From contig CAWAKC010000012.1 of NCBI GenBank assembly GCA_963782525.1, positions 1 to 64,000 on the forward strand: DNA of 64,000 nt. The letters are read 5' to 3'. The DNA is from Candidatus Bathyarchaeota archaeon. GTDB taxonomy: Archaea; Thermoproteota; Bathyarchaeia; Bathyarchaeales; Bathycorpusculaceae. Shown here piece after piece: positions 12,943 through 17,358 of the stretch. How positions within the stretch are numbered: the first letter of the stretch is position 1; every line of letters begins with the position of its first letter. A program made the position numbers and the translations under genes. A model generated the notes under the pieces. That model saw only the letters and a list, made by a program, of their open reading frames with translations. It had not been told where the DNA came from and did no database searches.

Positions 12943-14784
12943 CTATTTTTTGGGTGTTTTAGCGGGTTCTTTCTTATCTGGCTTGGTTTCCATTTTTTCG
13001 GGTTTCGTTGTTTTGGTGTAGTAGTATTCGCCGATGTCTTTTTGGAATTTATCCATCTGGGAATCTTCTTTGTTTACTCTGGGGCGGTAAGTGACTGAGT
13101 CCCGTCTGAAGGTGATGTCCATTTCTTTAAGGAACGTGTTCATGCCCTGCCGAAGGCTGGTTGGTGGATGTGCTAAGCCGGATACTCCTGGTTCACCGTT
13201 GAAGACCATTAGGCGGTCTGCTATGAAGTCTTGAGTTACCACGTCGTGTTCAACTACGAAGGCTGGGATGCCGTGGGCTTCGACGACTCGACGTAGCGTT
13301 TTTGCCACATTTAAGCGTTCTTCAACGTCAAGGTATGCGCTTGGCTCGTCAAGCAGGAATAGGTCGGTTTTGCGGCTTAGGCACGCGGCGATGGCGACTT
13401 TTTGGAGTTCTCCGCCACTGAGTTCCATCACGTTTTTGTCCATTAGGATTTGTAGTCGGAGGGGCTGGGCGATTTCGGTTTTGTACCAGCTTGAAGTAAA
13501 GTTTTCCTTAGCCACGTTCATAAGTAGTTCTTGCACTGAACCTGCATAATCAGGCGCAATGTACTGGGGCTTGTAACTGACAGTTAACTTACTTAGTTGA
13601 CGTTTATCATCAGTCTCCTCCAGACCAGCTAAAATTTTGACGAAGGTAGTTTTTCCGATGCCGTTGGGTCCAAGAATTCCGATGATTTCGCCAGTTCGTA
13701 TCTCGCCTGGTTCGATGGCGAGCTTGAAGCCTTTGAAGGTTTTCTCCATTCTGTCCCATTTGAGTAGGGGATCGCCGACCATTTCGCCTGCGTTTGGCGG
13801 TTTTTCATGGAACACTATGGCTTCTTTTCGGAACATGATGTTCTCGTCTGGAATGTACCCTTGTAAGTAAATGTTAATACCTGTTCGGACTCCATGGGTG
13901 TGTGAGACGACGCCATAAACGCTTGGTTCTCCGTAGAAGACGCATATTTGGTCGGATAAGTAGTCGATGATGGCTAAGTCGTGTTCGGCTACAACGATGG
14001 TTTTTTGTTGTTCTTTGAGGCTGCGGATGGCTCTGGCAACTACAAGCCGCTGCTTCACGTCTAAGTAGCTGGAGGGCTCATCGAAAAGGTACACATCTGC
14101 TTCACGGCTAAGTGCTGCCGCAACCGCGACACGCTGAAGCTCCCCGCCACTGAGTACATCGAGTGGTCTATCCCAGATCTTCTTGAGCTCCAACTCCTCG
14201 GCGATGGCGTCAAGCAGTTTGCGTTCATCAACTTTTTCCAAGAGTTCACCAGCTTTGCCCGATACCGCCTTGGGAATTTTATCTACGTACTGCGGTTTGC
14301 TACTGACTTTAAGCTTCTTCTCGCTTAATTTCTGGAAGTAATCCTGAAGGCTTGAACCCCGATAATACTGAATGATCTCGGACCATTCGGGTGGGTCATC
14401 GAATCTGCCGAGGTTAGGTTTGATTTCGCCCGAAAAAACCTTAAGGGTAGTGCTTTTGCCTATGCCGTTTTGTCCCAGCAACCCCAAAACTGTCCCGGGC
14501 GAAGGCATGGGTAAACGATAAAGTTTGAAGCTGTTGGCGCTGAACCGGTGGCTACAATCTTTCTCGAGTTCGTCAGGTAGGTTGACGATGCTGATGGCTT
14601 TGAAAGGGCATTTTTTGACACAAATCCCACAGCCGCTGCAAAGTGTTTCAGCTATGACGGCTTTGGATCCTTCAACACGTATGGCTTCCACTCTGCTGCG
14701 TACCATGGGACAGAAGCTAACGCAGAGTGAATTGCATTTTTTGACTTTGCACTTGTCTTCGTTTAATACGGCAATTCGCGTCAT
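12943..14784 (-). CDS. rli1: ribosome recycling ATPase ABCE1/Rli1
   Basis: N-terminal Fe-S Cys motifs (CSGCGICVKKCPF), two ABC domains (GQNGIGKST, GPNGIGKTT, LSGGELQ x2). Confidence 0.97.
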   Translation of the reverse strand: MTRIAVLNEDKCKVKKCNSLCVSFCPMVRSRVEAIRVEGSKAVIAETLCSGCGICVKKCPFKAISIVNLPDELEKDCSHRFSANSFKLYRLPMPSPGTVLGLLGQNGIGKSTTLKVFSGEIKPNLGRFDDPPEWSEIIQYYRGSSLQDYFQKLSEKKLKVSSKPQYVDKIPKAVSGKAGELLEKVDERKLLDAIAEELELKKIWDRPLDVLSGGELQRVAVAAALSREADVYLFDEPSSYLDVKQRLVVARAIRSLKEQQKTIVVAEHDLAIIDYLSDQICVFYGEPSVYGVVSHTHGVRTGINIYLQGYIPDENIMFRKEAIVFHEKPPNAGEMVGDPLLKWDRMEKTFKGFKLAIEPGEIRTGEIIGILGPNGIGKTTFVKILAGLEETDDKRQLSKLTVSYKPQYIAPDYAGSVQELLMNVAKENFTSSWYKTEIAQPLRLQILMDKNVMELSGGELQKVAIAACLSRKTDLFLLDEPSAYLDVEERLNVAKTLRRVVEAHGIPAFVVEHDVVTQDFIADRLMVFNGEPGVSGLAHPPTSLRQGMNTFLKEMDITFRRDSVTYRPRVNKEDSQMDKFQKDIGEYYYTKTTKPEKMETKPDKKEPAKTPKK

Positions 14785-14959
14785 GTGTGGCGTCGTTTAA
14801 TGATGCCAACAGGATAGTAATAAATGTAAACCTCAAGGAAAAATAAACAAAAAGGAGAAATGGCTTTTTTCATCGGTTCAAGAAAACAACCTCAAAAACT
14901 CTGGAATAAATTGAAACTTAAAAGAAAAATAATACAAAAGTGCGGTATAGGCGTTTAGT

Positions 14960-15031
14960 TTACCATTCTTCTTCTTCCCATTCTTCATCTTCGCCTTCTT
15001 CCCATTCATCTTCTTCCTCTATGAACATCAT
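14960..15031 (-). CDS. acidic Trp-containing micropeptide MMFIEEEDEWEEGEDEEWEEEEW (23 aa)
   Basis: ATG..TAA ORF; SD GAGGTGA at 15047-15041, 9 nt before ATG; T-rich tract downstream. Confidence 0.65.
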   Translation of the reverse strand: MMFIEEEDEWEEGEDEEWEEEEW

Positions 15032-15237
15032 GTGTTTTTTTCACCTCACGAATAAGTCGTATATGCTACCCTACCCTCGGCAGGGTTTAAGCGTTTAGAT
15101 TCGTCAACTGACGTTAAAACCGTCCAATGCAATAGGTAGAAACATGGTTTCTGCACCTTTTTTCCTATTAATTTTAGGATTTTCAGCGGTAATTTTTTAA
15201 GGAAACGCCAACAAGAATGCTTCAAGAAGGCGATTGG

Positions 15238-15830
15238 ATGAGAAAAATCTTCAAAATAATCCTTGCAATCTTCGCAGTAGTAGTTGTTATAATAGTAGCG
15301 TTCGGAGCAATCATTCAACTAGATGTAGCAGCTATCACGGCTACGGGGTCGCAAACGCTGACGCCAACTGGAACCTCCGTTGGTAAGGCATTAGTAATCT
15401 ATGACCCTGGGCTATCAGGGACCGCAAAGGCGTCGCCGACAAAGTCGCCGCTGACCTGCAGGCAAAAAGCTATACTGTCACAGAGGCAGGCGTAAAAAGC
15501 CCAGCAGTCGCTAACACCACAGAGTACTCAGTAGTAGTTGTCGGCGGACCCGTTTATGCAGGCGCATTGACCAGCTCAGTGAAAGACTACCTAAACAATC
15601 TATCTGCAGGTCATGCGAGTCCAAGTTACGGACCTTACATTTTTACCAGAGTTGGGGTGTTCGGAAGCGGCCAAGGTGCAACCTCTCAAAACGATATAGA
15701 TATGATCAAAAACTCCGTAACGGCGCTCTCATCAAACGGTACCTTATCGAACGCAATTGTAGTTAAAATCGGGCAGAAAGAAGATCTCAACACAAGAGCC
15801 CAAGACTTCGTAAACCAACTAGTAACTTAA
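15238..15830 (+). pseudogene. membrane-anchored flavodoxin-like protein, frameshifted near 15428
   Basis: N-terminal TM, KALVIYDPGLSGT; continues in another frame as YSVVVVGGPVYAG..RVGVFGSG. Confidence 0.7.
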
Positions 15831-16953: not shown

Positions 16954-17010
16954 TTACTTTTTCTTTGCCGGGGCTTTCTTTACTTCTTTTTTAACTGGTT
17001 TTTTTGCCAT
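16954..17010 (-). CDS. Lys-rich micropeptide MAKKPVKKEVKKAPAKKK (18 aa)
   Basis: ATG..TAA ORF; SD GAGGT 7 nt before ATG; TATA TTATAAAT at ~17057-17050; T-rich tract downstream. Confidence 0.65.
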   Translation of the reverse strand: MAKKPVKKEVKKAPAKKK

Positions 17011-17136
17011 TGAAATAACCTCGGGATTCAATGTATGATAGCTATTGGTATTTATAACTTGCTAAATCGAGGAGAAAACAGATAACAAAGCTTAATACTT
17101 ACTTGAAAAGAAAAAGAGACTGTGGATGAAGTTGCT

Positions 17137-17358
17137 ATGAATGAATTAGAAATATCTGTGGCTCCGATGATTAGATTATGCAAGAAAGCGGGAGCAAAAA
17201 GGGTGAGTGGGGAAGCGGCTAAGGAGCTTGCAAGAGTCCTTGATGAGATTGGCGTTAAGATTGCAAAAGAAGCATGGGATTACGCTACATATGCTGGAAG
17301 AAAGACAATTAAAGCGGAAGATATTGAAATCGCTGTTAGAAAAGTAATGGTAAAATAG
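17137..17358 (+). CDS. archaeal histone (HMf-type histone fold)
   Basis: APM.RL.KKAGAKRVS.EA...L...AGRKTIKAEDI; alternative GTG start at 17122. Confidence 0.95.
   Translation: MNELEISVAPMIRLCKKAGAKRVSGEAAKELARVLDEIGVKIAKEAWDYATYAGRKTIKAEDIEIAVRKVMVK

Follow-up and report, generated by a model that had tools for sequence, protein, structure and literature searches.

Directly upstream of the ABCE1 gene of this archaeon lies a very short acidic reading frame, which raises the question of whether it is a real gene and, if so, what its product does. In the window, by which we mean the whole stretch of 64,000 nucleotides that was analysed, the frame occupies 14960–15031 on the minus strand as 23 codons followed by TAA, and it was defined from the ORF list, from selection and from orthologues. 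The translated product, MMFIEEEDEWEEGEDEEWEEEEW, has 23 residues, 15 of them Asp/Glu and three Trp, and it is laid out as a short hydrophobic start and an acidic body with three Trp, ending in a C-terminal Trp. Its computed pI is about 4.05 and its charge about −15, and it contains no Lys or Arg. A 22-aa form is possible from a second in-frame ATG at 15028. A Shine-Dalgarno sequence (SD), GTGAGGTGA, can be seen at 15041–15049 on the minus strand with its GAGGTGA core at 15047–15041, and the first ATG is 9 nt further on. The ABCE1/Rli1 ribosome-recycling ATPase, which includes the Fe-S domain, is encoded at 12943–14784 on the same strand (minus; NCBIfam PRK13409); its start at 14784 is 175 nt past the stop of the micro-gene and has no SD. 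Thus all of what the sequence-only reading had described of this ORF (23 aa with 15 Asp/Glu, a near-perfect GAGGTGA SD, and ABCE1 about 175 nt downstream) was confirmed.

Analysis of the source genome revealed 124,099 short-ORF starts (12–50 aa), only 11 of which had at least 45% Asp/Glu, and among those 11 an SD was present only in this ORF (two starts) and in two paralogues. A pattern built on the C-terminus was found in 38 of the 201 genomes searched in the class and its reversed-pattern control in none of the 201; a pattern that required five acidic residues ahead of the final Trp was found in just two. Within the genus, the exact C-terminus pattern was found in 21 of 24 other genomes, and the three misses are 56, 58 and 88% complete. 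We also located same-genus loci through ABCE1, without using the peptide sequence, and 19 of the 21 had the ORF within 1.5 kb; in one of the two misses the ORF was 2.2 kb off, and in the other the contig ended after 139 nt. Across these 19 loci the ORF is 95% identical, as against 63–70% in the flanks, and GAGGTG is kept in every one. In the last 18 codons all variation falls on third positions and the first two never change, with a pN/pS of 0.046 by rough count. The last 14 residues are the same in 19 of 19 loci, and D/E exchanges at two sites are the only differences between the peptides.

Purifying selection together with a conserved SD, start and stop is what marks a coding small ORF. The earlier reading had named loss of the frame as the result that would overturn it; the frame is kept, with variation at third positions alone in the 19 loci, and the Trp positions are maintained there and in further archaeal orthologues, so a real conserved micro-gene stands. 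A different explanation is that there is no protein gene, only a GAA-rich repeat or a small RNA. The low complexity of the tract and the use of GAA in 12 of the 13 Glu codons of the window copy (72% GAA genome-wide) would agree with it, but third-position-only variation in 19 loci already largely refutes a non-coding repeat, SD, start and stop are kept, and GAG is freely used for the same peptide pattern in distant lineages. We regard this explanation as extremely unlikely, and we are nearly certain, from conservation at the sequence level, that the micro-gene is a real coding gene with a predicted translation product.

Upstream of the SD, a TATA-like box (CTTAAA) was identified at 15086–15091 on the minus strand with a BRE-like A-rich stretch ahead of it. 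Its distance to the SD is fixed at 42–46 nt in the 19 loci, and the block is 87% identical in these same-genus loci versus 63–70% in the flanks, so we infer a promoter role for this putative box (a sigma-70-style promoter scan is unsuited to archaea). Further upstream of the BRE/TATA, at 15102–15113, lies the palindrome CGTCA-N2-TGACG (no strand), which is a likely candidate site of a dedicated transcription factor. The exact palindrome has three sites in the genome versus 1.85 expected by chance, and all three precede copies of the peptide gene; by weight matrix these three score 27.5–27.8 and the next genome site 20.1. No convincing further site that would point to a wider palindrome regulon was found in the genome. 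In a set of 177 loci that still contained duplicates and false bacterial matches, 94 had a relaxed form; the crenarchaeal loci of the set all lacked it. In Bathyarchaeia the micro-gene therefore appears, from these putative sites, to be under a dedicated regulator.

Beyond the stop, a U-rich tract can be seen 20–40 nt downstream (14920–14939, minus strand), and T-rich tracts occur in the same position in most relatives compared; this is likely an archaeal terminator. We infer that the micro-gene would be its own transcription unit with a short mRNA. In RNA libraries, the largest share of the window's words in any run was 0.19. The ORF bins were covered by contigs from two of four RNA runs (X1 and X4, with two 3-nt deletions in X1), the promoter region was covered by one X6 contig, and no contig of the four RNA runs covered 15252–15400. 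These contigs come from relatives, some pieces are loose-ended and DNA carry-over in the libraries is possible, so they give a weak hint of transcription of the micro-gene.

Our scan of GTDB genomes returned at least 118 matching stretches; the range described here is that outside the Asgard and euryarchaeal lineages. Among the matches listed, nearly all archaeal ones were short stand-alone ORFs, and the taxa included Bathyarchaeia, Acidianus, Aramenus, Ignisphaera, Hyperthermus, Pyrodictium, Thermogladius and other Desulfurococcales. The bacterial matches listed were mostly tails of long proteins and, except for two that seem misbinned, included no comparable stand-alone peptides. Contigs L090 and L119, titled as a bacterium and as Nanoarchaeia, have Bathyarchaeia-type peptide loci and are probably misbinned; the ABCE1 of L119 is 80% identical to that of the window, and that of the L090 genome 74% over the N-terminal 95 aa. 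Viral contigs were considered as carriers and rejected, since all four matches were tails of longer proteins. With a looser pattern, 111 of 221 genomes of the phylum matched, and one with the control. The members are 18–55 aa long. Among 70 peptides that were not selected for their last residue, this residue was W in 56, F in eight and another in six; terminal W is found in 21 of the 2241 long ORFs of the genome. Ahead of the last residue, Trp spacing ranged from 3 to 24 residues, with a wide spread across families.

Neighbourhoods were counted for the 64 peptide loci out of 80 with long flanks, among the matches listed. ABCE1 was within 2.5 kb in 56 of these 64 archaeal loci, including those of Sulfolobales and Desulfurococcales, and in one relative (L075) it is 96% identical to that of the window. 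The other neighbours of the 64 were THUMP (27), Cgi121 (26), asparaginase (18) and S17e (8). ABCE1 is thus the most persistent neighbour. The micro-gene belongs to an old cluster of genes for translation, tRNA modification and housekeeping, which includes S17e, ThiS/MoaD, Cgi121, THUMP, an RPB9-like zinc ribbon and FBPase. In most loci it is co-oriented with ABCE1 and 50–260 nt upstream of it. Up to 1.45 kb of other DNA is inserted between them in some, and the order is divergent or rearranged in L098, L121, L133 and L137. In several families a further gene separates the micro-gene from ABCE1 (L065:2639–2947, L222:811–1104 and L098:2758–3066). Its product of about 100 aa has at its N-terminus a zinc ribbon of the RPB9 type, which matches PF02150 in L065 and L222, and ends in an acidic tail, with no second ribbon. 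On the other side of the micro-gene in the window, at 15217–15830 on the plus strand, overlapping ORFs of 92 and 87 aa resemble one frameshifted membrane-anchored gene, which appears to have been inserted upstream of the micro-gene and has no Pfam match above the cut-off.

The link to ABCE1 is not universal. We surveyed the regions upstream of 105 ABCE1 genes, chosen non-randomly to span families; the peptide was found in 52 and none was seen in 53. In families f11, f45, f46, f48, f50, f56, f57, f59 and f68, the sampled members have the two genes unlinked. Of 20 matches that were retrieved away from ABCE1, 15 are acidic ORFs that stand alone and have W, F or V as their last residue, and three are LysW-like fusions; this shows that the gene outlives loss of the linkage. 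The two from family f39 proved to be tails of long, unrelated proteins and were rejected. In that family ABCE1 is present, the peptide was found upstream of it in none of four cases, and the looser pattern matched just four of 33 genomes.

The source genome holds four copies, three of them away from ABCE1, all on the minus strand at G000 C3:333034–333102, C5:96104–96172 and C3:210206–210274. Two of these extra copies encode an identical 22-aa peptide and keep the palindrome, and within 3 kb of each lies a gene that we take to be PadR-like. The third extra copy is divergent, has no palindrome and sits between genes that are presumably those of a Vps4-like ATPase and TBP. The genome also carries a second copy of ABCE1 (G000 C10:214997–215719, minus strand), shortened and apparently broken, whose pieces match residues 1–84 and 440–598 with 64–75% identity; no acidic micro-gene was found in the 3 kb beside it. 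Elsewhere, the acidic-Trp tract forms the rear part of a fusion protein that begins with a LysW-like zinc ribbon, recognised in L298–L300 by PF21344 (26.8–30.2 bits against a cut-off of 27) and in L166 by eye. Atlas neighbours of the fused form, at 0.92, are LysW-like clusters, and a protein database search with the fusion returned only the fusion itself.

A similar peptide occurs in a second translation context. In a Candidatus Nanopusillus match (L157), an acidic-Trp ORF stands between the genes for NMD3 and aIF1A; the operon begins with aIF2beta and has the order aIF2beta-DUF424-NMD3-X-aIF1A, in which X is the acidic-Trp peptide. Among 30 aIF1A loci taken from relatives of G418, with genomes of 0.4–0.8 Mb, 18 have such an ORF in the slot between NMD3 and aIF1A; these 18 are the best-scoring of the 30, and the 12 more distant loci lack one. 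The nanoarchaeal acidic-Trp microprotein (L323:1357–1527, also L324–L341) has in many cases a short N-terminal helix-like segment. These nanoarchaeal peptides came to light only via aIF1A, and the Thermoproteota-type pattern had no match in 120 other genomes of the phylum of G418. Because of the low complexity, homology of the nanoarchaeal and Thermoproteota peptides is unprovable; convergence or transfer from the host is a possible cause of the likeness. Both persistent contexts, ABCE1 and NMD3/aIF1A, consist of translation genes.

We then asked whether the peptide belongs to any described class. The window peptide had no match in Pfam, NCBIfam or PDB, and none of 50 members matched a Pfam family. 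A family HMM matched one of 221 genomes and missed even the source genome, as the HMMER bias filter suppresses such composition. The best Atlas score for the peptide was 0.78, a lead at most. The only annotation found was the NCBI entry 'hypothetical protein [Acidianus]', with an N-terminus longer than the start chosen here, and no description of the peptide was found in the literature covered, which took in neither supplements (with possible archaeal small-ORF tables) nor most subscription journals. Membership of the eIF3j, stalk-protein, LysW and CIA-signal classes was rejected on the features compared. LysW carriers use a C-terminal Glu; here PF21344 is shared only by the fused L298–L300, which end in Trp, and the window peptide has no such zinc ribbon. 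Sem1/DSS1 is a small, very acidic, Trp/Phe-studded disordered adaptor, and in size class, acidity and aromatic residues the peptide, which is predicted to be disordered, resembles it. However, Sem1/DSS1 is about three times longer, eukaryotic and a component of complexes such as the proteasome lid, and its Pfam profile matched none of the 50 members, although the HMMER bias filter suppresses such sequences.

In the archaeal stalk protein aP1, an acidic stretch precedes the terminal hydrophobic residues of the tail. These residues bind NBD1 of ABCE1, docking in a pocket there (PMC6125642), and the peptide likewise has terminal hydrophobic or aromatic residues. Unlike the peptide, which would be a free product with its Trp separated by Glu runs and a C-terminus of E4-W, aP1 is anchored on the ribosome and docks a short helix with L103, L106 and F107; neither the N-terminal dimerisation domain of aP1/P1-P2 nor the conserved hydrophobic C-terminal helix is found here. 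Acidic-Trp motifs are present in the N-terminal region of eIF3j, a eukaryotic factor of recycling and initiation that associates with ABCE1. In native eukaryotic complexes the extended N-terminus of eIF3j reaches into the cleft between the NBDs of ABCE1. The site resembles the one that the aP1 tail occupies, and the authors propose a multivalent regulatory patch there (PMC7780240). Factor eIF3j also adjoins eIF1A and works with ABCE1, according to a review in which no acidic-Trp terms for eIF3j were found (PMC5737393); ABCE1 and aIF1A, the main neighbours in the two archaeal contexts, are the pair between which eIF3j acts in eukaryotes. The likeness concerns the proposed role at the ABCE1/eIF1A step; in contrast to the 3-kDa peptide, eIF3j has a mass of about 30 kDa, a six-helix dimer bundle and a binding site for eIF3b, and no helical dimerisation domain or Pfam match was found in the peptide or in any of the 50 members.

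The sequence-only reading had also pointed to a nearby histone gene and a basic micropeptide as possible partners. The histone gene (17122–17358, plus strand, PF00808) is about 2 kb from the micro-gene, and an 18-aa Lys-rich micro-ORF (16954–17010, minus strand) lies back to back with it; the Lys-rich ORF and histone occur together in all five genomes with a pattern match among 41 searched (L313–L317). However, the neighbourhoods give this proximity no support as an argument. Among the matches listed, none of the 64 peptide loci had a histone within 2.5 kb, and the histone block is about 770 kb from the acidic gene in G001 and on a separate contig in G012, being unlinked even in relatives with 97% identical ABCE1. 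With the block far away in two close relatives, the 2-kb distance in the window is probably incidental. If the peptide chaperoned the histone or the Lys-rich ORF product, partners of opposite charge would be brought together, and in family f56 (L299 and L300) a 14–15-aa Lys-rich micro-ORF with an ATG and a perfect SD stands directly after the fusion gene, but this pairing is from one family and three genomes, with no standard start codon in L298. In view of the neighbourhoods, we find such a chaperone quite improbable.

Three further explanations accept the gene and differ in what it does. As a cis-acting leader peptide, its acidic tract would destabilise or stall ribosomes and so set ABCE1 expression by recycling capacity. 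Acidic nascent chains have been reported to destabilise ribosomes (10.1101/2021.02.02.429294, PMC9718836 and PMC11162784), most loci have the co-oriented arrangement 50–260 nt from ABCE1, and the window ABCE1 has no SD. A leader should always be co-transcribed with, and lie directly upstream of, the gene that it controls, but the gene order includes divergent, DNA-separated and unlinked copies, some far from ABCE1 with unrelated or convergent genes downstream, and the U-tract past the stop and the extra copies also speak against it. We consider a leader improbable. An Fe-S cluster loading adaptor for ABCE1 would resemble Lto1-Yae1, which is functionally tied to Rli1/ABCE1, and would act via the C-terminal Trp; eukaryotic CIA clients and adaptors are marked by such a Trp (PMC10245660), a terminal W or F is found in 64 of 70 peptides, and ABCE1 has its Fe-S domain. 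Nevertheless, the CIA tripeptide is [LIM]-[DES]-[WF], with L, I or M at the third-last position, while the window peptide ends in E-E-W and this position is acidic in aligned members. The peptide also lacks the deca-GX3 repeat, the signal is described as eukaryote-specific and absent from archaeal homologues in PMC10245660, the Nanopusillus-type context is NMD3/aIF1A, and no Fe-S assembly gene was noticed among annotated neighbours. Such an adaptor has little probability.

A general polyanionic chaperone or hub, similar to Sem1/DSS1, is a stronger contender. It would have no single partner and would shield basic ribosomal proteins, NMD3, initiation factors or further RNA-binding proteins during assembly. 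The last 20 residues are 75% D/E and 15% W, the number and spacing of repeats differ between families, there are two different translation contexts and extra copies with their own promoter, and the tract has been fused to a LysW-like zinc ribbon. The wide spread of Trp spacing means that a general polyanion fits as well as a specific ligand. On the other hand, the invariance of the last 14 residues in the same-genus loci and the terminal aromatic kept in 64 of 70 peptides exceed what a bare polyanion needs, and no Pfam family was matched by any of 50 members. Overall we judge it somewhat unlikely.

The reading that we prefer is a trans-acting factor of translation. The promoter- and terminator-like signals of its own, the extra copies, the rearranged or inserted loci and the copies away from ABCE1 all argue for a product that very probably acts in trans. 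That it acts in translation is probable, and the tie to the ribosome and ABCE1 that the sequence-only reading had suggested is strong as gene order. Since this link is a matter of gene order in an old housekeeping cluster, and several families keep the two genes apart, ABCE1 may be a neighbour by descent and not by function. From a short mRNA under a dedicated regulator, a free peptide would be made, predicted to be a disordered polyanion ending in Trp. Its Glu/Asp tract may mimic RNA and meet a basic surface, and the spaced Trp and terminal aromatic residue may fill hydrophobic pockets. It would dock on ABCE1 or on the post-splitting 30S-ABCE1 complex at the step from recycling to re-initiation, by binding the patch on NBD1 that also receives the tail of the stalk protein aP1 and the N-terminus of eIF3j. 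In this way it would tune either the ATPase activity of ABCE1 or the release of ABCE1 from the 30S subunit. We put forward only tentatively that this Trp-anchored polyanion may be a direct cofactor of ABCE1 or 30S-ABCE1. If this best reading holds, the peptide would be a minimal archaeal stand-in for the N-terminal arm of eIF3j/Hcr1. The fullest version, which we regard as speculative and unlikely, is an ancient and overlooked translation factor, present in TACK archaea and in nanoarchaea of the Nanopusillus type: a free 3-kDa peptide that would couple ABCE1 recycling to aIF1A-dependent re-initiation as a functional forerunner of that arm.

In conclusion, the micro-gene is real, widespread and, as it appears, undescribed. 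Acidic-aromatic docking motifs are already known; the free-standing 3-kDa form tied to archaeal translation genes is new. Despite its conservation the peptide is almost never annotated; gene callers and profile searches would tend to miss it, and so would tryptic proteomics, as the window peptide has no Lys or Arg. Splitting assays for archaeal ABCE1 exist, the peptide is synthesisable, and Sulfolobales have the gene. To our knowledge, archaeal ribosome recycling has been described with ABCE1, aRF1/aPelota and the stalk, and we know of no eIF3j-like accessory factor. This textbook pathway would gain a component from a peptide that accompanies ABCE1 across several classes and, in nanoarchaea with reduced genomes, aIF1A. 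The forerunner, if real, would have its own regulated promoter and be retained even in 0.5-Mb symbiont genomes, and a recycling role, if true, would bear on the origin of the eukaryotic coupling between recycling and initiation.
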